Source: Patescibacteria group bacterium
GTDB lineage: Bacteria; Patescibacteriota; Patescibacteriia; Patescibacteriales; UBA12465
NCBI GenBank assembly: GCA_041656935.1
Contig: JBBACQ010000001.1
Coordinates: forward strand, 29,459 to 93,458
DNA length: 64,000 bases
Reading direction: 5' to 3'
Part shown: positions 6,798-39,465 of the stretch, one piece after another
Numbering within the stretch: the stretch's first letter is position 1
Layout of the letters: each line of letters begins with the position of its first letter
Position numbers and translations under genes: made by a program
The notes under the pieces: model-generated
What the model saw: the letters and a program-made list of their open reading frames with translations, nothing else
The model's database searches: none
What the model was told of the DNA's origin: nothing

Positions 6798-8345
6798 CTA
6801 TTTTCTTTTTCTATATTTATAAAAAAAATAAAACAACAAAAAATAATAAATAATACTCAAAAACAAAGACCAATTGGCTATATTAATTGAAGCCCCGGGA
6901 ATTTTGATGCTCCAAACAGCAACTAAATAAATATATCTTAGAAACAGTTCAATAAAAAAATATACGAACTGAGCTAAAAAAGGAATAAGAAAAGAGATAA
7001 TCAGGGCGATGATAGATAAGGAAATAATGATTGGTAAAAGAAATAAAACTAGCAAATTAGAAATTGGAGCTATTAAAGAAAATTGTTCGAAATTAGAAAT
7101 TAAAATTGGAGCGGTTATTAATTGAACAGAAATTGTTAAACTTATTATATCAATAATAGATTCCCTAATTTTTATTTTCATATTAATTTTTGACAGAATA
7201 GCATCTTTAACTAGAGGATGAAAATAAATTATTCCTAAAACCGCCAAAAAAGAAAGTTGAAAACCGATGTCAACAAAAACCAAATAAGGATTAACTAATA
7301 ATAAAATCAAAAGAGTTAAAAACAAAGCATTAACTAAGTTCCCAACTCGCCCCATATAAATAGCCAAAAAAGAAAAGAAACCCATAATCGAAGCCCTAAT
7401 AGCCGAAGCCGGAAAACCAATTAAAATTAAATAAAGAAACAAAAACAAAACACTTAAATAAAAAGAACTTTTTCTAGATAAGCCAATAAACAACAATAGG
7501 CTTAATAATAAAGAACATAATAGGCTAATATGCAAACCAGAAATAGCAATAATATGACTGAGTCCCGCCCGAGAAAAGATTTCTCGATTTTCAGTTGTTA
7601 AATCGCTCTTATCACCTAAAATCATCCCTTTTAAAATAGCCGAAGAATCAACACTTAAGAAGAGATTAAATTTCTCAGCTGTTTTAGATTTAAAATCATA
7701 AATATAATTTAAAAAATAAATTCTTAACTTAGTAAAAAAATTGTTGCTAAAACAAATGGAAGGCAGACTATCGTTAGAAAAATTTTGGAGTTCAAGCAAA
7801 TCAATCTTCTTAATTTTAGGATAATAAGCAACGGCTGTAATTTTATATCTTTTTAAATACAAAGAATAATTAAAATCATCAATAAGTCCTGGTTCTAAAT
7901 ATTGTCCCTCAACTTCTAAATAATCACCATAGCTATAAGTTGGATAAAGAAAGCTACTCAATAAAATATTACCTTCCAATTTAAAAAAATTAGCCAAATT
8001 ATCCTGGCCACAAATAATTTTTAGCTTTATTTTTTGTTTATCATTTTTTATCTCTGGGTCATTAATAACTCCGCCAAATATCTTAAATTCATAATCATAA
8101 TAATTCTCAATTTTACCGGAAAGATCGTCCCCTAACAAAAAAGAATAACGCCAAATAGCTAAAAATATAAAAAATAAGATTAAATAAATTTTAGAATTAA
8201 ATTTTATTAAAAAAAATAGAAAAATTAATAAAAAAGAAAAATAAAATAAACTAGGAAGATTTTGAATAAAAAATAAATAGTGGGCTAAAAATAAACCCAC
8301 CACGAAAGATACCCCAGCTATTAAAAAGAAATTATTTTTACTCAT
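6798..8345 (-). CDS. comEC: ComEC/Rec2 DNA internalisation channel (no beta-lactamase-fold domain)
   Basis: 515 aa, polytopic, with the competence-domain motif FSRAGLSHIIAISGLHISLL. Confidence 0.85.
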   Translation of the reverse strand: MSKNNFFLIAGVSFVVGLFLAHYLFFIQNLPSLFYFSFLLIFLFFLIKFNSKIYLILFFIFLAIWRYSFLLGDDLSGKIENYYDYEFKIFGGVINDPEIKNDKQKIKLKIICGQDNLANFFKLEGNILLSSFLYPTYSYGDYLEVEGQYLEPGLIDDFNYSLYLKRYKITAVAYYPKIKKIDLLELQNFSNDSLPSICFSNNFFTKLRIYFLNYIYDFKSKTAEKFNLFLSVDSSAILKGMILGDKSDLTTENREIFSRAGLSHIIAISGLHISLLCSLLLSLLLFIGLSRKSSFYLSVLFLFLYLILIGFPASAIRASIMGFFSFLAIYMGRVGNLVNALFLTLLILLLVNPYLVFVDIGFQLSFLAVLGIIYFHPLVKDAILSKINMKIKIRESIIDIISLTISVQLITAPILISNFEQFSLIAPISNLLVLFLLPIIISLSIIALIISFLIPFLAQFVYFFIELFLRYIYLVAVWSIKIPGASINIANWSLFLSIIYYFLLFYFFYKYRKRK

Positions 8346-29031: not shown

Positions 29032-29772
29032 TTAGCGTAAAGTCCAGCCACCATCTACTACTAATACTTGGCCGGTAATATAATTAGCTTTATCAGAAGC
29101 TAAAAAAACAACCGCTTGAGCAATATCATCAGGAGTGCCCATTTTTTTCCAAGGGATAAGGGCTAAAAATCCTTTTTTAGCTTCTTCTGTCATTGTTTTA
29201 GTTGCTCCGGGGGTTTCAATAGCTCCGGGGGCTACAACATTTACATTTATTTTTTTATCAGCTAATTCTAAAGCCAAAGCTCTAGTTAATCCGTTTACCC
29301 CGCCCTTAGAAGCACAATAATGGACCAATCCTTCGAAACCAACTATTGAGGCAATTGATGAAATATTCACAATTTTGCCACCAGCCTTCATTTTTTTAAC
29401 CGCCGTTTGAGAACATAAAAAGATACTCTTTAAGTTGACATTAATTACTTCTTCCCAATTAGCTTCAGTCATCTCTGAAAAAGGGGTAAATGGAAAAATA
29501 CCAGCATTATTTACTAAGATGTCTAGCTTACCAAATTTTTTTATTGTTTTGGCTATCAAATTGTCGACCTCACCTTTTTTGGCGACATCACAGGCCACGG
29601 CTAATACTTTTACACCAAATTTTTTTAATTTTTCAGCTGTTTTTTCACAGTCCTTCTGTGTGATATCACTTACAACAACATTACAGCCCTCTTTAGCAAA
29701 AGCTAAGGCAATTCCTAGACCAATTCCCTGTTTGGCACCGGTTACTATAGCGACTTTATTTTTAAATTGCAT
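29032..29772 (-). CDS. Short-chain dehydrogenase/reductase (FabG-like)
   Basis: TGAKQGIGLG cofactor motif, NNAG, and the catalytic YCASK (YxxxK). Confidence 0.85.
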   Translation of the reverse strand: MQFKNKVAIVTGAKQGIGLGIALAFAKEGCNVVVSDITQKDCEKTAEKLKKFGVKVLAVACDVAKKGEVDNLIAKTIKKFGKLDILVNNAGIFPFTPFSEMTEANWEEVINVNLKSIFLCSQTAVKKMKAGGKIVNISSIASIVGFEGLVHYCASKGGVNGLTRALALELADKKINVNVVAPGAIETPGATKTMTEEAKKGFLALIPWKKMGTPDDIAQAVVFLASDKANYITGQVLVVDGGWTLR

Positions 29773-29845
29773 ATTTTTATTGTTAATTATGAGATTTAAT
29801 TAGATAGAATAACGAATTCCAAAAAAGTTAAAAAAAGAAGAATAT

Positions 29846-30319
29846 TTAACTTAATGTCGCTAGCCAAACTCCGATATAATGAGTTAAGATAATTACTATA
29901 ATAGTGATTAATAAATGTTCTAATACTACTGGATAAGGATTTATTTTTTGTTTTTTGGCCAGATAATAACTAAATATTATTATTAAAAATAAGCCCCAGA
30001 CAACACAAAAAATAATGGCTGTAGAAAGTTCTAAAAATAAAATAGGGATAACAAACATTAAAGCAAAAACAAATTTAGATAAAAAAGTGGCAATTGTTGA
30101 CTCCCAAACTTCTTTGGTTGTATTTTTGTTATCAACTTCTTCTGACATATGAATTCCTAACGCATCTGACATGGCATCAGCTATTGCTATTACCAGTATG
30201 CCACTAATAATAACAATATCAGAGCTAGTACTAGAATGTAACCCGATGATCAAACCTAAGGTTGTTATTACACCGGATGTTAAGCCGAAACTAAAGCCTT
30301 TTTTTATTGAAATTTTCAT
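29846..30319 (-). CDS. Small VIT1/CCC1-like membrane protein (possible Fe/Mn transporter)
   Basis: 157 aa, polytopic, with an AIADAMSDALGIHMSEE acidic motif reminiscent of short VIT-family proteins. Weak assignment. Confidence 0.5.
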   Translation of the reverse strand: MKISIKKGFSFGLTSGVITTLGLIIGLHSSTSSDIVIISGILVIAIADAMSDALGIHMSEEVDNKNTTKEVWESTIATFLSKFVFALMFVIPILFLELSTAIIFCVVWGLFLIIIFSYYLAKKQKINPYPVVLEHLLITIIVIILTHYIGVWLATLS

Positions 30320-30426
30320 AAATAATAGTCAAAGTTAATTTATTTGGTCTAAAATTTATTTTAGCTAACATCCACCGATATCTGATATTTTGTTGAAATA
30401 CCAATTAGCCGACGGACAAATAGAAA

Positions 30427-31182
30427 TTATTTGGTTGCTTCAATCTTTAAACTTTCAAGGGGAATGCCTTGGTATTGTCTTTTACTGATATCTTTATCTT
30501 CTGACAAAATTTTTATTTTAAATCCAGCATCTTCAATAATTTTTAAATATTCATCTTTTAATAAAGCTCCACCTACACATCCAGCAATTAATTCATCGTT
30601 ACTTTTCTGTTCGTCAGAGATGTCTCCTAGTAAAACAATATCTGAATTATAAATTTTACCACCTTTTTTAAGTACCCGGAATGCTTCTTTGAAGACTTTA
30701 GACTTATCTGGTGCTAGATTAATAACACAGTTACTTATAATCACATCAATAGAATCACTTTCCACGGGTAGTTTTTCTATATCTCCCAATCGAAATTCAA
30801 CATTATTATAATTAAATTTTTCAGCATTTTTCTTTGCTTTAGCAATCATCTCTGGCGTTATATCTATTCCGATTACTCGTCCAAGTTTACCTACTTTTTT
30901 AACAGCAAGAAAACAATCGAAACCAGCTCCTGAGCCTAAATCTAAGACAACATCGCCCTCCTTGATATTTCCCATCCCCGTTGGATTACCACAACCAAGA
31001 CCAAGATTAGATTCGGAAATAGCTTCTATTTCCTGATCAGAATAGCCAATACTTTTGGCAATTTGTTTATTGACATTTTTATCGTTACAACCACAACTAT
31101 TACTACAACATCCAGCACCGTTTTGAGTTGCAATTTTGCTATAATGCTTTTTAACGATTTGTTTAATATTATTTTTTTTCAT
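30427..31182 (-). CDS. arsM: Arsenite S-adenosylmethionine methyltransferase-like (ArsM family)
   Basis: Cys-rich N-terminus (GCCSNSCGC), the LGLGCGNP motif, and the SAM-binding VLDLGSGAGFD. Confidence 0.78.
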   Translation of the reverse strand: MKKNNIKQIVKKHYSKIATQNGAGCCSNSCGCNDKNVNKQIAKSIGYSDQEIEAISESNLGLGCGNPTGMGNIKEGDVVLDLGSGAGFDCFLAVKKVGKLGRVIGIDITPEMIAKAKKNAEKFNYNNVEFRLGDIEKLPVESDSIDVIISNCVINLAPDKSKVFKEAFRVLKKGGKIYNSDIVLLGDISDEQKSNDELIAGCVGGALLKDEYLKIIEDAGFKIKILSEDKDISKRQYQGIPLESLKIEATK

Positions 31183-31195
31183 AAGTTTGTTTGAT

Positions 31196-32143
31196 TTAAA
31201 ATTTTCGTTGTCTGGTTCGGTTTTCTAGATATCTCTCAATGGCTTCTTTGGAGGTTAACCAATCCCGGCCCTCTTTATACGCCTCCAGCTTTCCTTGTCT
31301 GGCAAGTAAATTAAGATATTTGGCAGAAAAAGGAGCGGTTTTAGCTATTTCCGCAAGCCTCAAAAATTTTTCCTGTTTTTGTGTTGACGGAGTTAATGTC
31401 TTTAGATAAATATCCAATGAACGCTCGATGGACTGAGCAATAAATTTTACCAGTGGTTCAAACTTACCCTTATCCGATTTATCCAAAACATCATAATATT
31501 TTTTTCGGTCAGTTTTCATGATCGTGACCAATGGATATCCAGCTTGCATCAAAAATAGATTCATCGTTAAGCGTGCCGTTCTACCATTGCCGTCAAAAAA
31601 CGGATGAATATAGACTAATTTATGATGCAATAAAGCAGAAAGTTCAATAATATTCAGTTTGTTTTTTTGTGAGTTTAACCAAATAATTAATTCTCTCATT
31701 TTATTTGGTACTTGTAGCGCATTTGGTGGAATATGGTCTGCGCCACCAATAATTACATTAGCATTTCTATATCGGCCGGCCCATTCCTTATCCGTTTCCT
31801 GCAAAATAATTTGATGTAAGTTTTTAATAAGCATTTCGGAAACAGTGTGTTTTTTGTCTTTATCTATTAAGTCATACAAATATTCTAGTGCGGCATGGTG
31901 GTCTTTCGCTTCCAAATGGTCTTTCAAAGGCTTACCTTTCACTGTCAGGCCTTCATTAATAACTAAAAAGGTCTCTTTTAAAGTTAAAGAGTTGCCTTCA
32001 ATAGCATTTGAGTTATAGGTCATTTCAATTTGGAATTTTTCTCGAAGTTTTTGCACTGCAGACTTAGGTAAGGGGCGCAGTTTGTTGAGTTTGGACAGTT
32101 TTTCTTCCAAACGATTTTTTACGATTGATGATAAGTAAGTCAT
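31196..32143 (-). CDS. fic: Fic family protein (class II, autoinhibited) with C-terminal HTH-like domain
   Basis: Canonical Fic motif HPFFDGNGRTARL. N-terminal inhibitory motif S-N-A-I-E-G ([S/T]xxxE[G/N]). The C-terminus (AKYLNLLARQGKLEAYKEGRDWL) looks like a DNA-binding fold. Confidence 0.9.
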   Translation of the reverse strand: MTYLSSIVKNRLEEKLSKLNKLRPLPKSAVQKLREKFQIEMTYNSNAIEGNSLTLKETFLVINEGLTVKGKPLKDHLEAKDHHAALEYLYDLIDKDKKHTVSEMLIKNLHQIILQETDKEWAGRYRNANVIIGGADHIPPNALQVPNKMRELIIWLNSQKNKLNIIELSALLHHKLVYIHPFFDGNGRTARLTMNLFLMQAGYPLVTIMKTDRKKYYDVLDKSDKGKFEPLVKFIAQSIERSLDIYLKTLTPSTQKQEKFLRLAEIAKTAPFSAKYLNLLARQGKLEAYKEGRDWLTSKEAIERYLENRTRQRKF

Positions 32144-32176
32144 AAAATGCTTAATATGGTTTAGTTAATTATTTAC

Positions 32177-32204
32177 ATTATACCATATTAAGGAATTTGG
32201 TCAA
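32177..32204 (-). promoter_or_regulatory. Strong sigma70-type promoter for fic
   Basis: Minus strand TTGACC (32204-32199), 16-nt spacer, extended -10 TGgTATAAT (32185-32177), about 30 nt upstream of the fic ATG. Confidence 0.65.
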
Positions 32205-32295
32205 GACTGTATATTCAGCTTAGTTTTTGAATAATTCAATGCTTCAAGCGCCGTTTGATCTCTTGCCAGATTAAACAATTTTTTACTCACGCTCA

Positions 32296-32378
32296 GATCA
32301 ACGTTTGCGTATATCTGATGTGCGAAGCATGTGGGCGGAATGACCGCAGGGAGTGGAGCCAGATATACGCTGTTAGGC
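32296..32378 (-). other. attC-like recombination site C (3' end of cassette C)
   Basis: The minus strand reads GCCTAAC-a-GCGTATATCTGG...loop...CAGATATACGC-aaac-GTTGATC. It begins 10 nt after the stop codon of the 264-aa ORF. Confidence 0.65.
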
Positions 32379-32404
32379 GATGTAAATTTTAGACTTTTTT
32401 AAAT
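32372..32404. repeat. Terminal inverted repeat of cassette C, distal arm
   Basis: GTTAGGCGATGTAAATTTTAGACTTTTTTAAAT matches the reverse complement of 33190-33222 at 31 of 33 positions. It overlaps the last 5 codons and the stop of the ORF. Confidence 0.85.
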
Positions 32405-33183
32405 CTCGCGACAAATTCATCTCTTGTCATCACAACTTGTCTTACTTCCGGCTTCTCTCCCGTTGTTAGATATTTTTCCAGAGATCTCTTGTTGTATTGC
32501 AATGCTAAATGTTGAACGGCGGTAACGTCACTATCTTCAGGTGAAATGTCCTGTATTGAAATTTCATCACCCAATAGCATTCTAGCTTTCGCCTCCATTT
32601 TTTGATTAAGTAACCAAGATTTCATAACAATTTTATCTGCTGTGATTTCACCCGCTTCTAATTTAGCCCCTATGGACTGAAAGCCATCTATGATTTTAGA
32701 AATTAGTTCTGCGCTTTCCACGCCCGTTGGCCTGATGTGTAATGAAATTTCATTATTGTTGTCTTTTTTATATGCGATAACATCATTGACATGCACCATG
32801 CCAGACCCTTCTTCCACCTCATCTCTTTTTCTATTCCATTCAGTGAGTAATAGATTGGCGATCGGTGAAGTAGCTAATCTGTCGGCAAAGCTATCTCTGG
32901 AAAAATTATTTTCTTGACATTCCTGTAAAGAGGAATTAATTATTTGATACAATTCTTGTTTTGCTTTGGACTGTTGAGTTTCTTCGCTGGAGCCACTTAA
33001 TCTAGAAACGTAAAGATCAACCATTCTTTCTGTAATTGCATTCGTATCTTCAGCACCTTCGGTATGGAGTAAATTTTGATATAGTTCAAATCCACCAACA
33101 AATCTAATAAACGCAGGATTTGTTAAGATCATATCCCTTGTTCCTTCTTGATGAATTTGTCGCGATTGTTCACCTTCTATCAT
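32389..33183 (-). CDS. Hypothetical protein (cassette C ORF)
   Basis: 264 aa with no recognisable motif. By eye it is richer in G+C and poorer in Lys/Asn/Ile than its neighbours. Confidence 0.6.
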   Translation of the reverse strand: MIEGEQSRQIHQEGTRDMILTNPAFIRFVGGFELYQNLLHTEGAEDTNAITERMVDLYVSRLSGSSEETQQSKAKQELYQIINSSLQECQENNFSRDSFADRLATSPIANLLLTEWNRKRDEVEEGSGMVHVNDVIAYKKDNNNEISLHIRPTGVESAELISKIIDGFQSIGAKLEAGEITADKIVMKSWLLNQKMEAKARMLLGDEISIQDISPEDSDVTAVQHLALQYNKRSLEKYLTTGEKPEVRQVVMTRDEFVARFKKV

Positions 33184-33189
33184 ATTGGT

Positions 33190-33222
33190 ATTTAAAAAAG
33201 TCTAAAATTTATTTCGCCTAAC
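33190..33222. repeat. Terminal inverted repeat of cassette C, proximal arm
   Basis: ATTTAAAAAAGTCTAAAATTTATTTCGCCTAAC, the partner of 32372-32404. It ends 6 nt upstream of the ORF ATG. Confidence 0.85.
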
Positions 33223-33367
33223 ATCGGGCTTAAGGGAAGTTTGATTTTTTCAGAGCTGGAACGCAGATTTTTTGAGGCAACCCACAAAAAATCAAGTGAC
33301 CTCGAAAAAATCAAATTTGGGTCGGAGAAACCTGCAAGGTTTCGGAGCCCTTTAAGCCCTGTTCTAT
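33216..33367 (-). other. attC-like recombination site B (3' end of cassette B)
   Basis: The minus strand reads ATAGAAC-a-GGGCTTAAAGGG...about 110-nt structured loop...CCCTTAAGCCC-gat-GTTAGGC. There is one extra A in the 5' arm. The loop contains nested TTTGATTTTTTC/GAAAAAATCAAA and GATTTTTTG/CAAAAAATC pairings. Confidence 0.65.
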
Positions 33368-33516
33368 TCGTCCGTTAGGACTTGATTTTTAGTGCAACGA
33401 TGCCGAAGGCAAAAAATCAAAGTAATTTCAGGGGCGTATTCAATCAAGCGAACACAGTGAGCCATCAAGAATAAGTATCAAGGGGCAATTTTCAGTCCGT
33501 CGTAGGGGGAATTCCG
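33361..33516. repeat. Terminal inverted repeat of cassette B, distal arm (with inserted hairpins)
   Basis: Its blocks GTTCTATTC, GTAATTTCAGGGG, GGGGCAATTTTC and GGGGGAATTC are the complement of blocks in 34106-34175, in the same order. Confidence 0.7.
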
Positions 33517-33557
33517 TTTATTTTTTGCTTTTTTTTCTCTAAAAAAGAAGATTTGTT

Positions 33558-34049
33558 TTAAATTTCTATTTGAAATATTGCAATAATTAACATAAGAACA
33601 CATGTCAAGGCAAGCGTATAATAATAAAGCCAAGATTGTTTTTTATTATACAGATAATAAATAATTCCAAGAGTCAACATTGTAATTATTATTCCAGCAA
33701 TCCAAGGTGTTTGATATAAAAATAGACCTATTGTAATGAACAAGGTCATTAATGGAACTGTCATAAAAGTTGACTTGTAAATATCCTTTAATTTTAATCG
33801 AAAGAAAAAATAAGAGATTGCCATAATAATAACAAGAAATGAAATATGTAACAATGGTGGAAGCCAGAATAATTGCGAATCAGGATTAAAAGGCATAAAT
33901 AACCCAATAATCCTTCGAATTGTATTTTGATAAAGAGCATCAAAAAGGAATGTTAGAATTAGCAAAATATATCCGAAAACCGCTATGGCTAAAGCTGATA
34001 AAAAACCTTTAATCAAAGGATTCCTAAAAAAGTGCTTTAATTTTCTCAT
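33558..34049 (-). CDS. Hypothetical polytopic membrane protein (cassette B ORF)
   Basis: 163 aa with 4-5 predicted TM helices. No family recognised. Confidence 0.6.
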   Translation of the reverse strand: MRKLKHFFRNPLIKGFLSALAIAVFGYILLILTFLFDALYQNTIRRIIGLFMPFNPDSQLFWLPPLLHISFLVIIMAISYFFFRLKLKDIYKSTFMTVPLMTLFITIGLFLYQTPWIAGIIITMLTLGIIYYLYNKKQSWLYYYTLALTCVLMLIIAIFQIEI

Positions 34050-34105
34050 ATATTGAATGGTTTAGTATAAATAATTTCCTATCTATATTTTTTATTATAT
34101 TTTGA

Positions 34106-34175
34106 ATTCTCCCCAGTCGTTTTTGTTTTTAGAAAATTGCCCCCGTCGTTAGCCCCTGAAATTATTGAATAGAAC
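34106..34175. repeat. Terminal inverted repeat of cassette B, proximal arm
   Basis: GAATTCTCCCC...GAAAATTGCCCC...CCCCTGAAATTATTGAATAGAAC, the partner of 33361-33516. Confidence 0.7.
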
Positions 34176-34270
34176 GTTTCGGCATATCTGATGTTTGCCG
34201 TAGCGTAGCGGAGGCAAATATGGGTGGAGGCTTTTGTATAAAAGCCGTAACCAGATATGCCGTGTTATGT
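34169..34270 (-). other. attC-like recombination site A (3' end of cassette A)
   Basis: The minus strand reads ACATAAC-ac-GGCATATCTGG...loop with TTTGCC/GGCAAA and GGCTTTT/AAAAGCC sub-hairpins...CAGATATGCC-gaaac-GTTCTAT. Confidence 0.65.
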
Positions 34271-34385
34271 GATGTGCATGTTTTACTTTAATCCCGATAG
34301 CAATCGGGATTGCTCTAAAAAAGAATTTTAATTTTGTTTTTTTGTTTTGAAAAAATGAAAGAGGGGTTAGGGGTGAATTTCATTT
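34262..34385. repeat. Terminal inverted repeat of cassette A, distal arm (about 120 nt)
   Basis: GTTATGTGATGTGCATGTTTTACTTT, then a hairpin, then CTCTAAAAAAGAATTTTAATTTTGTTTTTT and AAAGAGGGGTTAGGGGTG. These match the reverse complement of 37265-37390 block by block. The internal hairpin is replaced by a different hairpin of similar form. Confidence 0.8.
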
Positions 34386-34411
34386 TTTCAAAACTCCTTA
34401 TTTTTTAATGA

Positions 34412-34849
34412 TTATCTATCAGCATCCTTTGCTGCTTTTTCGATCCAGTTTCCCATATTATTATATCCGTCATCATTATTCCATAAATAAAAATCATATC
34501 CGCTTGGGATTCTTCCACATCTTTCAGAAGTATTGCCTTGGAGATCTTTTATTTTGCTTACATCTATTCCTAAAAGTCCATTTCCTATTTCTTTGCTTTT
34601 TTCTATTTCATATTTTACCCACCTGCTGCTACAAGTTTTTTCTCCCACAAGCACAACCGTAACAGATGTTCCTTTTAATTGATTATCAATCCAATTTTTA
34701 ATTGCTTGATCACCTTGTTTTTTTATCTTTTCAAAATCAGCTGCGTCTATAAAGCCCGCAGCTTCTTTTCCTTGTGTTACCCAGCTGTTTCTAACGACCA
34801 TAGCTCGAGAGACATCTTTATATTTGAAACTAAAAAATACTTTTCTCAT
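34412..34849 (-). CDS. TIR-like domain protein (DUF1863 / ThsB-like)
   Basis: 145 aa. The N-terminal KVFFSFKYKDV strand, VVLVGEKTCSSRWVKYEIEKS (SxWVxxEI) and GNGLLGIDVSKIKD match the MTH538/DUF1863 TIR-like pattern as I know it. Confidence 0.78.
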   Translation of the reverse strand: MRKVFFSFKYKDVSRAMVVRNSWVTQGKEAAGFIDAADFEKIKKQGDQAIKNWIDNQLKGTSVTVVLVGEKTCSSRWVKYEIEKSKEIGNGLLGIDVSKIKDLQGNTSERCGRIPSGYDFYLWNNDDGYNNMGNWIEKAAKDADR

Positions 34850-34859
34850 AATTTTAAAT

Positions 34860-35264
34860 TTAATTTATTAAATATATTATAAATAGGGCGGCACTGATTA
34901 AAGGTAAATAAAAAATTAAAAGAGTTGGTGAAAACATAGAGTAGATTTGAGTATTTTTCTTTAATTTTTTATATTCTTCTACATCCATAGAAAAATCTAT
35001 TTCTTCCTCTTTTAGTTTTCTAACATGATTATATAAATCTCTAAACAATCTTTCTTGCGAAAGAAAGTATCCGTCCAAAATCCAAAAAACCAAGGTAATA
35101 ACTATAAGAAAATAAATGACATAATCAGAATTATTTGCCTTTGAAAACAAAGCAAGAAGTGCGCCAATCAAAGTAATAGTCCATCCTCTTAGAAAAAACA
35201 AATTTCCAGCCATTCGGCTAATTATATTTTGTATAAATTCAAGATGTTTGCGTTTATTTTCCAT
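34860..35264 (-). CDS. Small multi-TM protein, candidate membrane effector partner of the TIR-like protein
   Basis: 134 aa. Two adjacent TM helices (WTITLIGALLALF and VIYFLIVITLVFWILDGYF), a charged helix (ERLFRDLYNHVRKLKEEE) and a C-terminal TM. A 10-nt gap separates it from the TIR-like gene. Confidence 0.6.
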   Translation of the reverse strand: MENKRKHLEFIQNIISRMAGNLFFLRGWTITLIGALLALFSKANNSDYVIYFLIVITLVFWILDGYFLSQERLFRDLYNHVRKLKEEEIDFSMDVEEYKKLKKNTQIYSMFSPTLLIFYLPLISAALFIIYLIN

Positions 35265-35267
35265 AGT

Positions 35268-36245
35268 TTATTTTAAATCAGCCATTATTTTTTTTGCTAA
35301 ATGATGAGCAAAATTTACAGCAACAGCATTTCCGATCATTTTATATCCGTCAGCGATATCACGATATTTGAAAATAAAATCATCAGGGAATGTTTGAATC
35401 CTTGCACATTCACGAACAGACAAGCGACGATATAAATGTTCTTTTCCGGGAACAAAAATTCTTTTATTTTGACTGATGAATTTCATTTTCGGAGCTTGCG
35501 GATGAATTGGGGCGTGGCGACCACCAGCTTGAATAGTAAAAGAAGGTTCATCCCATGAGCGGACACGATTTCGTGACATATAAATTGAAGAAAAACCGCC
35601 ATTCATGTATTCGTGATTTGGAATTTTTAACATATCACCATTTGTTTTATTTTTATCTAACGCAGGTTTTGCTAAACGCAAATCATAAATAGCGTCTTTT
35701 AATACGGGTTTATATTTTTGCGGTTCTGGAAATTCAAATTTTTTCTTTAGTTTTTTATTATATCCCACAATAATGACACGCAATCTATCTTCAGGAACAT
35801 CATAATCATTTGCATTCAATAATTTGCAAGAAATATTATATCCAGCATTTTCAAATTCCTTTATTATATTTTCAAAAGCTTCCTTATGTTTTGGATGAAG
35901 GATTCCCGACACATTTTCTGCAAGAAAAAATTTAGGTTGTTTTTCTTTTAACAAACGAATATAATCATAAAATAATTTTCCTCGCTTGTCATTTATCCCA
36001 CGCCCAGCTCCAGCTTCACTCCAACTTTGGCAAGGTGGTCCGCCAATAATTCCGTCAACATCAGGAATTTCAGAAGCGGGAACATCAACAATACTTCTTT
36101 TATCAAGTTTTGTTTTTGGAAAATTATGTTCAAAAGTTTCCCAAATTGTGGGGTCATATTCATTTGCCCAGACGACATGAAAACCAGCTTTTTCAAAGCC
36201 TAGATCAAGTCCTCCTGCACCTGTAAACAATGAAGCTATTTTCAT
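35268..36245 (-). CDS. DNA (cytosine-5)-methyltransferase, M.HaeIII-like (probably GGCC-specific)
   Basis: C5-MTase motifs are FTGAGGLDLGF (I), GGPPCQSWS (IV), ENV (VI) and GNAV (X). The variable region (ALDKNKTNG, PNHEY, MSRNRVR, EHLYRRLSVRECARIQ) is collinear with M.HaeIII as I recall that sequence. Confidence 0.92.
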   Translation of the reverse strand: MKIASLFTGAGGLDLGFEKAGFHVVWANEYDPTIWETFEHNFPKTKLDKRSIVDVPASEIPDVDGIIGGPPCQSWSEAGAGRGINDKRGKLFYDYIRLLKEKQPKFFLAENVSGILHPKHKEAFENIIKEFENAGYNISCKLLNANDYDVPEDRLRVIIVGYNKKLKKKFEFPEPQKYKPVLKDAIYDLRLAKPALDKNKTNGDMLKIPNHEYMNGGFSSIYMSRNRVRSWDEPSFTIQAGGRHAPIHPQAPKMKFISQNKRIFVPGKEHLYRRLSVRECARIQTFPDDFIFKYRDIADGYKMIGNAVAVNFAHHLAKKIMADLK

Positions 36246-36247
36246 AA

Positions 36248-37228
36248 TTATTCGTGACTAATATTTAGTGTATTTTTAAATAATTTTTTCGGCGATTTCA
36301 AAAGGTTTATATCAAATTTCAATGACGATTCAACCCTTGAACTTGCATTATGAATACGAAAAGAAAGAGTCCAATCATTATTCATGGTTACTATCGCAGT
36401 TGTTTGGCTATCGGTTTTGAAACAAATATCAATAATTTCTGTTGGTAGTGGTACTTTGGGGGTTTTATATTTCGGAAGAATGTCGTCAAAAGGCAAATTT
36501 AATGTTCCATTCAAATTGTAGGCGTGTATTTCTACACTATTTTTGCCTTTAATAACTTTGTAAAAATCTTTATTTCCAACGAGGTATGCGACTAAATTGG
36601 ACGCTACTTTTTTAGAATCTTTTTTATATAGATTTTTCAGTTCTTTAATAAAGGCTTTTAAAATTGGAATGTAGATTGATGAATGATAATCACCAAGCTC
36701 ACTCCACTTTTTCTTTGCACCACTTTCTTTTCTAATTTTTTCCAAATTGTTAAAAATAGGTGTAACTGTTTCAAAATATTCTTTTGATGTTTTTATTCCA
36801 AGCCACTTTTCGCCAAAATCAATATTTGAAGATAGTCGGGAATGTTTTACTGCATGATGATTATTTTTTGCAGATACTCCAATTTCCCATTTTTGCAATA
36901 AACGAATTGCTAAAACGTCTCTGACATCGCCTGATTTTCCATGTTGATCTGATAAAATTTCAAGTTGCAGAATATCATCTTTGCCAATATCGTTTGTGAG
37001 GCGTGGCTCTATATCCATTAAAAAATTAACCGCAAAACTAGCGGTGAGCAAATAATCGCTCTTTTCTGTTTCGCTAACATTTTCAAAACAACCTTTTGCA
37101 ATTTCAAAAGAAGAATTTTTGATAACTTCAAGATTTGTTTTGTCTTTCAATTTTTCTTCAAATTGAACAAGCAAAGCATACTCAAAAGATTTTCCAGTTG
37201 TCATTTGTCTTGATGCAGTAGTAGTCAT
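36248..37228 (-). CDS. Putative type II restriction endonuclease cognate to the M.HaeIII-like methylase
   Basis: 326 aa, co-oriented, with a 2-nt gap to the methylase gene. The assignment rests on context and size, and no catalytic motif was identified with confidence. Confidence 0.6.
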   Translation of the reverse strand: MTTTASRQMTTGKSFEYALLVQFEEKLKDKTNLEVIKNSSFEIAKGCFENVSETEKSDYLLTASFAVNFLMDIEPRLTNDIGKDDILQLEILSDQHGKSGDVRDVLAIRLLQKWEIGVSAKNNHHAVKHSRLSSNIDFGEKWLGIKTSKEYFETVTPIFNNLEKIRKESGAKKKWSELGDYHSSIYIPILKAFIKELKNLYKKDSKKVASNLVAYLVGNKDFYKVIKGKNSVEIHAYNLNGTLNLPFDDILPKYKTPKVPLPTEIIDICFKTDSQTTAIVTMNNDWTLSFRIHNASSRVESSLKFDINLLKSPKKLFKNTLNISHE

Positions 37229-37264
37229 ATTTTTATTATTACATTTTTCCCCTTATAAATAAAT

Positions 37265-37390
37265 CGTTTTCGTAGCGGAGCGGAGAAAACACCTTATACC
37301 CCCTTTTAATAAATAAAAAACAAAATTCAAATTCTTTTTTAAAGCTGGGCGATAGCCCAAAAGTAAAACATGCATTTCACATAACTGGTT
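37265..37390. repeat. Terminal inverted repeat of cassette A, proximal arm
   Basis: Partner of 34262-34385. It starts at the attI crossover (ACATAAC, 37379-37385). Confidence 0.8.
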
Positions 37391-37500
37391 ATTATACGAA
37401 CAATACTTAAAAAATACATTAATTTAAGCATTGTTTATTTAAGATATGCTATAATAATCAAAGTTAAAACTATTAATATTTTAATATAATTCAAATAAAT
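37379..37500 (-). other. attI-like region with crossover site GTTATGT
   Basis: Minus-strand GTTATGT (37385-37379) forms the first G|TT junction. A TATAAT (37396-37391, minus) lies 5 nt upstream of it and points into the cassettes. The motif ATTTAAG occurs twice (37422-37428 and 37436-37442). Confidence 0.5.
37447..37455 (+). promoter_or_regulatory. Extended -10 element for the recombinase gene
   Basis: TGcTATAAT lies about 45 nt upstream of the ATG at 37501. No good -35 is present. Confidence 0.4.
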
Positions 37501-38310
37501 ATGCAAACTCAATTAAATCTCCTTGAAAGAGAGTTAAAAATTAGAAATTATAGCCCTAAAACCATTAAGGCCTATCTTTATGGTTTAAAAGAGTATCTAA
37601 TATTTAAAAAGGTAAATTTAGATAATTTTGATGAAAATATCATTAAGAATTTTCTTTTAACTTCTCGAATCAAAGCTTCTCCTCAAAGCCAAAATATATA
37701 TCTCGGAGGGATAAAATTTTATTATTACAATATCATTAAAATTAATAAAAAAATAGACATAAAATCAATCAAAAAGACCAAAAAGCTCCCCGTTGTTCTA
37801 TCTCGCCAAGAAATTAAAGAAATATTAAATTCAATTTCAAATGAAAAACATAAATTATTAATAGCAGTATCTTATGGAGCTGGATTAAGAGTAAGTGAAG
37901 CTATTTCTCTGAAAGTCAAAGATATTGATCTAGAGGAGCTGACTATACACATTAAAAACGCTAAGGGGCAAAAAGATCGCATCAGCGTATTACCAGAAAA
38001 ATTAATAAAAAATTTAGAAAAAATAATTAAATTTAAATCTTTAAATGAATATGTTTTTGAGAGTGAGAGAGGCGGGAAATTAACCTCTCGAACTGCTCAA
38101 AAAATTTTTGAAAATAACTTAAAAAAGGCCAAAATAAAAAAAGACGCCACCTTCCATAGCTTACGTCATAGCTTTGCCACTCATCTATTAGAAAACGGCG
38201 TTGATGTTCGTTATGTTCAAGAATTACTTGGTCACCAAAATATCAGAACAACACAAATTTATACTCAAGTCACTAATCCTAAATTAAAAAACATTAAAAG
38301 CCCCTTATAA
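37501..38310 (+). CDS. IntI-like tyrosine recombinase lacking the integron-integrase-specific insertion
   Basis: 269 aa. Catalytic residues are R (GLRVSE), K (KGQKDR), HxxR (HSLRHSF), H (LLGHQN) and Y (IYTQV). It has a SAM-like N-domain (IRNYSPKTIKAY). The blocks KLPVVLSRQEI...GLRVSEAISLKVKDID...KGQKDRISVLPEKL and the C-terminal ..IKSPL are collinear with IntI1 as recalled. Confidence 0.88.
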   Translation: MQTQLNLLERELKIRNYSPKTIKAYLYGLKEYLIFKKVNLDNFDENIIKNFLLTSRIKASPQSQNIYLGGIKFYYYNIIKINKKIDIKSIKKTKKLPVVLSRQEIKEILNSISNEKHKLLIAVSYGAGLRVSEAISLKVKDIDLEELTIHIKNAKGQKDRISVLPEKLIKNLEKIIKFKSLNEYVFESERGGKLTSRTAQKIFENNLKKAKIKKDATFHSLRHSFATHLLENGVDVRYVQELLGHQNIRTTQIYTQVTNPKLKNIKSPL

Positions 38311-38313
38311 CGA

Positions 38314-39465
38314 CTATCTAATCACACTAAACTTCCTCAACCGCTCCACCGTCTTAACTAATTTATTAATCACATAATCAATTTCTTTCTTATTATTATA
38401 TCTCCCCCAAGAAAACCGAACATTACTGTTCATATATTTCGGATCAATCCCCATAGCAGTGATAACCGAAGAAACTTTTAAATTTTGAGCTGAACAAGCC
38501 GAACCCGTAGAAACACAAATACCATTTAATGATAAATCAATTAAAATCGCCTCTCCCTCTATTCCCTTAAACATAATATTCAAATTATTAGGTGCTCTAT
38601 TTTTAAAATCTCCATTAAGACGAATATTTTTTATTTTTTTCTGTACCTCCTGCCAAAAATAATCACGCAGTCCTTTAACTTTTTTTAAATAATCATTTCT
38701 CTCTAGATAAGATAATTTTAAAGCCTCAGTTAAACCAACAATCCCAGCCAAATTATGAGTCCCGGCCCGTAATCCCTTTTCCTGTCCCCCACCAACAATT
38801 AATGGTTTTACCTTTATCTCCTTGTTTATATAAGCCAAACCAACACCCTGTGGCCCATAGAACTTATGAGCTGATAATGACAAAAAATCAATCCCCCATT
38901 TTTTGATATCAATTTTTAAATACGGCACCGCTTGGACAGCATCAGTATGAAAAAATATCTTCTTGGCCCGAGCAATTTTCCCAATTTCCTCTATCGGCTG
39001 AATACTACCAATTTCGTTATTTATTGCCATAACTGAAATCAAAACTGTGTCTGGTCGAATCTTTTTCTTTAACTCCTCTAAAATTACTACACCATTTTTA
39101 TCTACTGGAATATAATCAAATTCAAAACCTTCATCTAATAACTCTCGAGCCGATGATAAAATACAAGGGTGCTCAATAGCCGAAACTAAAAAATGCTTGC
39201 CCTTATCAGAGTTAGCCCGCAGTACCCCTTTGATAATCAAATTATTAGCTTCCGTAGCCGAAGAGGTAAAAATAATATTATCAGCTTGACCACCTAAAAC
39301 TTTGGCAATATCTTTTCTACACTGGGCAACTTTAATATCATTTTCCTGCCCCATAAAATGAATAGAAGAGGCATTACCATATTTAACAGCAAAATATGGC
39401 ATCATTTTTTTTAATACCCTTTTATCAATTTTAGTAGTAGCTGAATTATCTAAATATACTTGCAT
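38314..39465 (-). CDS. nifS: Cysteine desulfurase NifS/IscS
   Basis: Class V aminotransferase with the PLP lysine context SLSAHKFYGPQG and the active-site loop STGSACS. Confidence 0.92.
   Translation of the reverse strand: MQVYLDNSATTKIDKRVLKKMMPYFAVKYGNASSIHFMGQENDIKVAQCRKDIAKVLGGQADNIIFTSSATEANNLIIKGVLRANSDKGKHFLVSAIEHPCILSSARELLDEGFEFDYIPVDKNGVVILEELKKKIRPDTVLISVMAINNEIGSIQPIEEIGKIARAKKIFFHTDAVQAVPYLKIDIKKWGIDFLSLSAHKFYGPQGVGLAYINKEIKVKPLIVGGGQEKGLRAGTHNLAGIVGLTEALKLSYLERNDYLKKVKGLRDYFWQEVQKKIKNIRLNGDFKNRAPNNLNIMFKGIEGEAILIDLSLNGICVSTGSACSAQNLKVSSVITAMGIDPKYMNSNVRFSWGRYNNKKEIDYVINKLVKTVERLRKFSVIR

Follow-up and report, generated by a model that had tools for sequence, protein, structure and literature searches.

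We analysed a 64-kb stretch of DNA from a Patescibacteria group bacterium (a metagenome-assembled genome, contig JBBACQ010000001.1; the whole stretch, 31% GC, is called the window below), in which a tyrosine recombinase gene lies beside an array of small gene cassettes. An initial annotation of this DNA had claimed that, in three of these cassettes (A, B and C), the complementarity between the two cassette ends continues far past the R box into long inverted arms, and it is these arms that we examine here. The recombinase gene is on the plus strand, and the genes to its left, including those of cassettes A, B and C, are all on the minus strand. The three cassettes are delimited by three hairpin sites and by a junction at 37384/37385, with the crossover probably falling between these two positions. 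The features, read leftwards from the recombinase gene, are as follows.

37501-38310, plus strand: tyrosine recombinase gene, 269 aa (Pfam Phage_integrase, 1.1e-43)
37374-37402, plus strand: attI/dif-like site, consisting of ATTTCACATAA (37374-37384), CTGGTTA and TTATACGAACA
34175-37384, minus strand: cassette A, 3210 nt (boundaries from R-box logic and the hairpin scan)
37230-37384, minus strand: 5' arm and leader of cassette A, pairing with 34264-34385 and containing the mini-hairpin TGGGC-TATC-GCCCA
36248-37228, minus strand: HaeIII-type endonuclease gene of cassette A (Pfam)
35268-36245, minus strand: C5 methylase gene of cassette A (Pfam)
34860-35264, minus strand: small membrane protein gene of cassette A (Pfam)
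34412-34849, minus strand: ThsB-like TIR protein gene of cassette A (Pfam)
34264-34400, minus strand: 3' arm and trailer of cassette A, with the mini-hairpin AATCCCGAT-AGCA-ATCGGGATT and a 17-bp hairpin at 34344-34394
34173-34266, minus strand: hairpin recombination site (attC-like core) of cassette A, AAC-4 nt-GGCATATCT...AGATATGCC-1 nt-GTT (hairpin scan and fold)
33222-34174, minus strand: cassette B, with an open reading frame (ORF) at 33558-34049 (163 aa) that has no Pfam family match
34106-34174 and 33361-33516, minus strand: 5' and 3' arms of cassette B, the 3' arm interrupted by extra hairpins
33220-33363, minus strand: hairpin site of cassette B (hairpin scan and fold)
32302-33221, minus strand: cassette C, with an ORF at 32389-33183 (264 aa) that has no Pfam family match
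33190-33221 and 32372-32404, minus strand: 5' and 3' arms of cassette C, the 3' arm overlapping the last codons and the stop
32300-32374, minus strand: hairpin site of cassette C (hairpin scan)

Sites were located with a home-made hairpin scan whose pattern runs from AAC through a short spacer, one strand of a GC-containing 10-nt stem, a loop, the other strand of the stem and a second short spacer to GTT. Exactly three were found in the 64 kb, those of cassettes A, B and C, and each is an imperfect hairpin of the attC type (R''-L''...L'-R', RYYYAAC...GTTRRRY), with none elsewhere in the window. Since each cassette start complements its own R'', forming a split R box, the crossover would fall between G and TT of the GTT, as it does in integrons.

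The pairing of the cassette ends does run far past the R box in all three cassettes, with formal scoring and junction folds in agreement and cassette B the weaker case. In cassette C, 33190-33222 and 32372-32404 match at 31 of 33 positions (local alignment score 56 against 15.8 ± 2.2 for shuffles, z = 18) within a 37-nt inverted repeat (32368-32404 and 33190-33226, 92%). Given the ORF at 32389-33183, the arm spans the stop and the last four to five codons on one side and ends 6 nt short of the ATG on the other, so that the initial description of this arm pair was reproduced in full. The ends of cassette A pair in blocks across about 95 to 120 nt. Ungapped blocks join 34264-34289 to 37360-37385 (26 nt, 92%) and 34312-34353 to 37304-37345 (42 nt, 86%), and a gapped alignment of about 90 nt scores 67 against 19.0 ± 2.7 for shuffles (z = 17.6). 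At nt 26 each arm of cassette A carries a mini-hairpin, and the two differ, AATCCCGAT-AGCA-ATCGGGATT in one and TGGGC-TATC-GCCCA in the other; the blocks over about 120 nt and the exchanged mini-hairpin had both been proposed from the start, and both hairpins were located. For cassette B the annotation had described ordered blocks interrupted by extra hairpins. Local alignment on its own gave a weak signal for this (score 27, against a maximum of 31 among shuffles). The duplex energy of the arms beyond nt 14 supported it (−27.1 kcal/mol against −14.6 ± 2.7 for dinucleotide shuffles, z = −4.6; cofold gain z = −6.2), as did the minimum-energy fold of the circle junction, which uses the ordered blocks.

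We also compared each 5' arm with every 3' arm. Beyond nt 14, cognate arm energies were −44.5 for A/A, −27.1 for B/B and −17.8 kcal/mol for C/C, whereas every non-cognate combination fell between −4 and −12.5. Arm pairing is therefore cognate-specific in all three cassettes of the window. When the reconstituted circle junctions were folded as DNA, each was predicted to form one long branched hairpin with the R and L boxes near its apex, which concurs with the long imperfect hairpin that the annotation had envisaged for an excised circle. The bottom strand was slightly more stable than the top strand in each case (bottom/top −92.4/−87.1, −78.7/−77.0 and −41.8/−38.2 kcal/mol). For cassette C the predicted circle junction would join ...CAGATATACGCAAAC to GTTAGGCGAAATAAATTTTAGAC. 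As a control, three canonical class 1 cassettes (IMP-63, aac(6')-Ib and OXA-19 on pTROUS1), with pairing counted from the G of GTT, paired over 9, 9 and 12 nt, compared with 33-120 nt here; the figure of only about 7 nt given earlier for canonical cassettes was thus too low.

The profile scores of the recombinase lie below the cut-offs of both the Xer and the integron integrase families. Its best NCBIfam match was XerA_Arch at 215.2 bits (cut-off 220), followed by the integron integrase family TIGR02249 at 213.2 bits in two stretches (cut-off 265), and by XerC and XerD at 180 and 178 bits (cut-offs about 330). Among solved structures VchIntIA and XerA are its best relatives. The alignment to VchIntIA (2a3v) falls into two pieces, skipping chain residues 183-243 with about 43 aa missing, and IntI1 has about 42 extra residues in the alignment exactly at the IntI additional domain. 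The catalytic Arg, His, Arg, His and Tyr positions are conserved. Integrons are defined by an integrase with an IntI-specific additional domain of about 35 residues near patch III, the I2 helix (PMC4889954, PMC9668308); by this IntegronFinder/Messier-Roy definition the window recombinase lacks the domain, and the same residues are absent from the array-adjacent recombinases of two related loci (L082 and L078). Judged from its sequence, the recombinase stands equally near to Xer and to IntI and is devoid of I2. Its relatives, about 270 aa long, number in the thousands, share 55-86% identity and occur in many Patescibacteria lineages.

The site beside this gene resembles dif. In the sense of the cassettes it reads TGTTCGTATAA-TAACCAG-TTATGTGAAAT, two 11-nt arms around a 7-nt centre, which is within the layout of Xer targets (two 11-nt arms and a 6-8-nt centre), and it lies beside a divergently transcribed integrase gene, as attI does. 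Compared with the dif site of Nitrosococcus oceani, TGTTCGCATAA-TACATA-TTATGTTAAAT (PMC2731167), it matches at 10/11 positions in each arm and has a centre of 7 nt rather than 6. These arm matches indicate that, in its extended form, the R box resembles a complete XerD arm of dif. Ahead of the recombinase gene the site is conserved in 63 of 81 loci (80 related loci and the window), which share the junction ATTTC-NNNN-AAC joined to T(G/C)GTT(A/T)TTAT(A/G)CGAA about 115 nt upstream of the gene, and in most of the 63 a second copy of TTATACGAAC follows the junction. We considered whether the site is the chromosomal dif, occupied at the replication terminus by a classical integrative mobile element exploiting Xer (IMEX), and rejected this for the present genome because no GC-skew switch marks a terminus at the site, skew and gene orientation being constant for 30 kb on each side. 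GC skew is negative over all 64 kb, weakest within the array (30-38 kb), and nearly every gene is on the minus strand, which places the bottom strands of the sites on the leading-strand template.

We then surveyed the 80 genomic loci of related recombinases together with the window (loci are designated by L and a number; 1.14 Mb entered a 9-mer search). Sites were far denser upstream of the recombinase gene than downstream (2.08 against 0.11 per 10 kb; 67 against 7 sites), and after filtering for family-like flanks 53 remained upstream and 1 downstream. Among the 39 loci whose upstream sequence reached 2 kb or more, 25 had at least one site. The 66 sites of related loci that share the layout are 46-187 nt long (median 107), with the recombinase-sense consensus TATTTC-NNNN-AAC, 4 nt, stem, loop, stem, 1 nt, GTT-NNNN-GATGTAA. 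The annotation had reported a 3-nt excess of the L'-R' spacer at every site. We measured spacers of 4/1 in cassette A, 3/1 in B and 4/1 in C, so that the asymmetry holds and the excess is 2-3 nt; among the 66 sites 33 are 4/1 and 12 are 3/1, and the 4-versus-1 asymmetry is a family-wide trait. In related arrays the four variable nucleotides on the right of a site recur, reverse-complemented, on the left of the next site, as in the flanks GTTATGCG/CGCATAAC and GTTAAGTG/CACTTAAC of L078.

Long arms proved to be a property of part of the family. Of the 58 cassettes with both boundaries defined, 36 paired over at least 9 nt, 20 had ungapped arms of 20 nt or more (against 2.4% of non-cognate pairs; maximum 49 nt, in L006), and 22 scored above the 99th percentile of non-cognate pairs beyond nt 14. 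About a third of cassettes thus carry cassette-specific, near-perfect arms of 22-49 nt without gaps, reaching about 120 nt when gaps are allowed, and a second class pairs over 9 nt only and has GC-rich modules beside R'' instead. The R box itself is an 11-14-nt arm found across the family, comparable to the XerD arm of dif with some flank (bottom strand, ATTTC-NNNN-AA), and only the pairing past it is specific to a cassette. In 20 of 21 long-armed cassettes positions 10 and 11 are mismatched, as T.T and G.T on the bottom strand or A.A and C.A on the top strand, and all other mismatches total 12. We dropped wobble bias as a test of the folding strand because mismatches outside positions 10/11 were too few. 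Mini-hairpins occur at nt 25-27 in 14 of 40 long arms, compared with 6.4% of controls; they are confined to this subclass, which ruled them out as a universal end of the first arm segment, and in a folded circle they would form a four-way junction.

Two further structures were seen at these sites. Some 3' ends carry a module beside R'' that consists of a 9-bp outer stem around an unpaired AGTGCAACG and a GAA-loop hairpin. In the window it occupies 33382-33430 and is the extra hairpin of the cassette B arm; elsewhere it lies at about 7230-7290 and 8285-8345 in L024, 8325-8385 in L039 and 8270-8330 in L060, and it is also present in L030, L046 and L054. Its outer stem is TTGATTTTT/AAAAATCAA in the window and CTGAAATTT/AAATTTCAG elsewhere, a covariation, and all 11 occurrences of its 9-mer in the 1.14 Mb are in recombinase sense and, to judge by position, fall within the array ahead of the recombinase gene. 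In addition, L033, L042, L045, L046, L048 and L072 have 'empty' cassettes right upstream of the recombinase gene, made of two R arms and a short GC-rich loop (for example GTTATTCAAAAT-GGAGCGGAGCGG-AATTTTGAATAAC, which directly abuts the dif-like site).

The distribution of homology between loci suggests that the cassettes are discrete, mobile modules. Homology of cassette C to L082 (84% over 936 nt) runs from 33222 to 32300, that is, from crossover to crossover, and the neighbouring cassettes differ. Contigs terminate within 330 nt upstream of the recombinase gene in 25 of the 80 loci, several of them inside the R box, as assemblies do where strains differ. The check that the annotation had proposed, a search of related genomes for the same arms around different cargo, gave a positive result for arm pair A. 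The 5' leader of cassette A recurs at 95% over 143 nt in L069 and 89% over 121 nt in L047, loci whose recombinases are only 56-60% identical to that of the window, and the cassette A 3' arm is homologous to the 3' arms of both, with a covarying stem and a conserved G-rich loop. The enclosed cargo is a helicase with Shedu in L069 and an EcoRI-type methylase, GmrSD/HNH and a Dam-like methylase in L047. The architecture of L047 is like that of the window: 28 nt of paired arm, a different mini-hairpin in each arm, then 33 nt of perfect pairing. The 17-bp perfect hairpin at the inner end of the cassette A 3' arm, whose conserved G-rich loop is GAGGGGTYAGGGGTGAA, has a stem that covaries between genomes (GAAAAAATGAAA/TTTCATTTTTTC and GGATTTTGGGCA/TGCCCAAAATCC) and is also found at about 2260-2320 in L047 and 205-265 in L069, and at 1346-1382 in L037, 5926-5962 in L024 and 5181-5217 in L015.

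The arms of cassette C involve coding sequence. The protein it encodes ends in ...ARFKKV*, a tail shared with distant homologues outside arrays that have no arms (L091-L093). It follows that native coding sequence forms the 3' arm, of which the 5' arm is the reverse complement. In the L090 orthologue (66% aa identity) the gene ends in AGATTTAAAAAGATTTAA and the 5' arm is TAAATTTTAAATCTTTTTAA, pairing at 20 of 20 positions, and relative to the window the two arms show three compensatory double changes. The 5' arm is conserved at 25 of 25 nt in the L084 and L085 orthologues (79% aa identity) despite decayed recombination sites, and in the window and orthologues alike it ends 0-6 nt ahead of the ATG. 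The complementarity thus appears to be actively kept or templated.

To the left of cassette C, the array continues with further features.

31195-32301, minus strand: next cassette, Fic/DOC plus helix-turn-helix (Pfam), with its own promoter at 32177-32204
30340-30395, plus strand: site remnant with arm, R box AGCTAAC and the left hairpin half only, GGTCTAAAATTTATTTTAGCTAAC-ATC-CACCGATATCTGAT (read directly and compared with the cassette C arms)

The promoter of the Fic/DOC cassette is near consensus (TTGACC, 16 nt, TATAAT with TG; match 11/12). The cassette is common to the window and L082 (79.6%), where it again forms the distal end of the array before a methyltransferase, and may be an anchored, toxin-like cassette. 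In the window a methyltransferase-like gene lies further left. Because the decayed half-site at 30340-30395 lies beyond both the Fic and the methyltransferase genes, the array formerly reached to about 29.8 kb, and the remnant marks an older, decayed part of it. In cassette A, the ThsB-like TIR protein, a Thoeris component, shares its cassette with the HaeIII-type restriction-modification pair and the small membrane protein; no ThsA partner was apparent among the 9 ORFs of 31196-39465 in the Pfam scan.

Taken together, these data lead us to favour, on balance, the view that the region is an integron-type cassette array of a Patescibacteria-wide recombinase family, with sites of the form R''-L''-loop-L'-R'. 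With the same modest confidence we regard it as a new form of the integron/IMEX principle, one where the folded site mimics duplex DNA by means of its long arms. The function we infer for the arms is as follows. After excision the arms would become adjacent and zip into a long stem, which would present the R and L boxes as a duplex-like mimic of dif on the folded bottom strand. A recombinase without I2 could then bind the folded site as it would any Xer site and swap a single strand with the dif-like site next to its gene; the shortened partner-strand spacer would block a second exchange, leaving the junction to be resolved by replication. The arms might stay complementary through a templated process or through selection, and may act as a reusable chassis for different cargo. 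It has been proposed that single-stranded hairpin elements used an Xer-like ancestor before I2 was acquired (PMC7790495). The mechanism outlined here would match that scenario and may offer a reason for long arms with an enzyme lacking I2.

Several observations weigh against this view. Every mechanistic step is inferred from sequence, and the site detector is home-made and strict, so that some 'cassettes' with 3-4 nt of pairing are probably mis-chained. Long arms are found in only about a third of cassettes; the others pair over 9 nt like canonical ones, so long arms cannot be required for mobility. Within the array the 5' arm next to each site is non-cognate, and in a simple hairpin model arms so placed cannot aid excision. 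L060 has an A-type 5' leader without a matching 3' arm, and non-cognate outer positions occur in L069, L086 and L090. In L069 (126-4502) and in the cassette C orthologues of L086 and L090, the variable 4 nt or the first 26 nt are non-cognate and the deeper arms cognate or homologous, which suggests exchange within arms, by homologous recombination or an alternative crossover. Finally, cassette C orthologues with decayed hairpin cores (L084 and L090) retain perfect arms; in L090 the 20/20 pairing is kept, yet no intact hairpin site was detected alongside. The keeping of arms in decayed cassettes suggests a function beyond recombination, an additional role at the expression or RNA level.

We also entertain, tentatively, a joint reading in which the arrays still represent, or closely resemble, the postulated stage between Xer/dif and integrons, with a recombinase lacking I2 able to capture single-stranded hairpin cassettes at a dif-like site because the long arms give the folded site the look of duplex DNA, and the arms, in addition, record cassette birth by fold-back synthesis, the 5' arm having been reverse-copied from the 3' end of a captured gene at the downstream hairpin; both parts together seem to us possible but doubtful.

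A mainly expression-level account takes the same observations further. Here the arms would work mainly in RNA, as a leader-trailer panhandle or by masking the start, and would stabilise or insulate the mRNA or control translation, with the continuity into the R box secondary. The 25/25 conservation of the cassette C 5' arm in L084 and L085 beside decayed sites, its 20/20 pairing in L090 without an intact site and its end 0-6 nt before the ATG fit this account. So do the 150-nt A-type leader, which is 89-95% conserved ahead of unrelated cargo and almost reaches the start codon, and its presence in L060 without a matching 3' arm. We nevertheless consider it rather unlikely, since the arms always start exactly at the crossover, the two fixed mismatches favour the bottom (antisense) strand and not the mRNA strand, and the extra conserved modules are specific to the antisense strand. 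Moreover, the arms hold no convincing promoter or terminator (counts in consensus scans were at chance level, and the sole strong promoter is that of the Fic cassette), and no Rfam family scored above threshold in 29500-38000.

The mirrored coding sequence of cassette C raises another explanation, that the arms are a footprint of cassette making or repair, through fold-back, hairpin-primed synthesis in which a hairpin downstream of a gene leads to reverse-complement copying of its 3' end before circularisation, or through gene conversion of paired arms, which then decays with age. That the cassette C 5' arm is the reverse complement of native coding sequence, present without an arm in L091-L093, points this way, as does the finding that arms are nearly perfect or absent with few intermediates; L090, too, shows three double changes and not single wobble changes. 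We think this explanation improbable. The A-type arms are non-coding and common to different cargo, and so were not copied from cargo; the mismatches at positions 10/11, fixed in 20 of 21 cassettes, indicate selection and not copying; and no polymerase or reverse transcriptase was linked to the arrays among the loci read.

The R and L boxes resemble Xer arms, the gene-adjacent site is dif-like and inverted copies of the R arm flank each cassette, all of which would also be seen in a chain of double-stranded dif-like sites in alternating orientation, without single-strand folding. Such chains are known as pdif modules in Acinetobacter plasmids, where cargo is likewise bounded by inverted Xer-type sites. 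We judge this very unlikely here. The pdif modules have complete 28-bp duplex sites and genes in every module, whereas in the window family one half's centre is truncated, the unequal spacers (4/1 and 3/1 in 33 and 12 of the 66 sites) leaving one would-be duplex centre about 3 nt too short, and genes are found only in alternate modules, those flanked by R; the L-flanked 'modules' are loops within the 46-187-nt sites. Owing to the fixed mismatches, the R'' side is also, as a duplex, a poor match to the conserved ATTTC arm. A last explanation, that the arms are terminal inverted repeats of a transposon or miniature inverted-repeat transposable element (MITE) sitting in the array, or chance matches of AT-rich DNA, can be set aside as extremely improbable: it is favoured by the AT-richness of the arms and by the recurrence of arm family A in several genomes, but the z-scores of A and C are 10 to 18 in size against shuffles, pairing is cognate-specific, the flanks are hairpin halves and not target-site duplications, the arms always begin at the crossover, no transposase or second recombinase was found within the 64-kb window, and the genome-wide MITE against which the annotation had cautioned has no further copies in the window, homologues elsewhere sitting at cassette boundaries in the same orientation.

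Compared with known systems, the array works like an integron and like hairpin IMEX elements. As in canonical integrons, the recombinase gene is divergent from an array of mostly promoterless, compact cassettes whose cargo is rich in defence and toxin genes. The sites are imperfect R''-L''-loop-L'-R' hairpins with AAC...GTT, the cassette start complements its own R'', the crossover probably falls at G before TT, and the bottom strand folds better. The bottom strand also lies on the leading-strand template, as it does in sedentary chromosomal integrons. Unlike canonical integrons, the family has a recombinase without the additional or I2 domain (about 35-40 aa) that defines IntI, and its R box is not 7 nt long but a dif-like arm of 11-14 nt in which two mismatches are fixed. 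The spacers of 4 and 1 nt contrast with the roughly equal spacers of the three class 1 sites, the arms of 22-120 nt with the 9-12 nt of the class 1 control, and the integration site is dif-like. With attP(+) of CTX phage and other IMEX, the sites share a hairpin of two inverted dif-like halves that mimics duplex dif, and the tandem build-up of elements beside the target. The attP(+) hairpin is recombined by an Xer enzyme without I2 through a single strand exchange (PMC7790495). In contrast to these elements, those of the window are small cassettes without replication or phage genes, their boundaries follow integron logic, and the target lies beside the recombinase gene and off the terminus, with one recombinase and not XerC plus XerD. 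A single Xer-type recombinase of about 270-360 aa linked to its site is also found in XerS/difSL, XerH/difH and archaeal XerA, the family of the best NCBIfam match, with a site of 11-nt arms around a short centre (PMC2731167). Those modules resolve dimers at the terminus, whereas here there is no skew switch within 30 kb on either side and the cassette array is variable. In the full-text literature searched, with subscription journals largely outside it, we found no description of integron-like arrays in Patescibacteria or the candidate phyla radiation, or of inverted arms flanking cassettes; to that extent the combination is not a described attC class, as the initial annotation had supposed.

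For the organisms concerned, these arrays carry multi-gene anti-phage systems in very small genomes, and detection tools that require the IntI-specific domain, in keeping with the IntegronFinder definition, should reject this recombinase. The family appears to be a natural system of the published Xer-like-ancestor type, spread across a whole bacterial radiation. It makes the origin of single-strand recombination from Xer-type recombination testable, with arm length and complementarity as the experimental variable. The origin of gene cassettes becomes testable as well, since the cassette C family exists both as an arm-less ordinary gene and as a cassette whose 5' arm mirrors its last codons; if the reading of cassette birth by fold-back synthesis is true, these arms would be the first sequence-level handle on cassette genesis.

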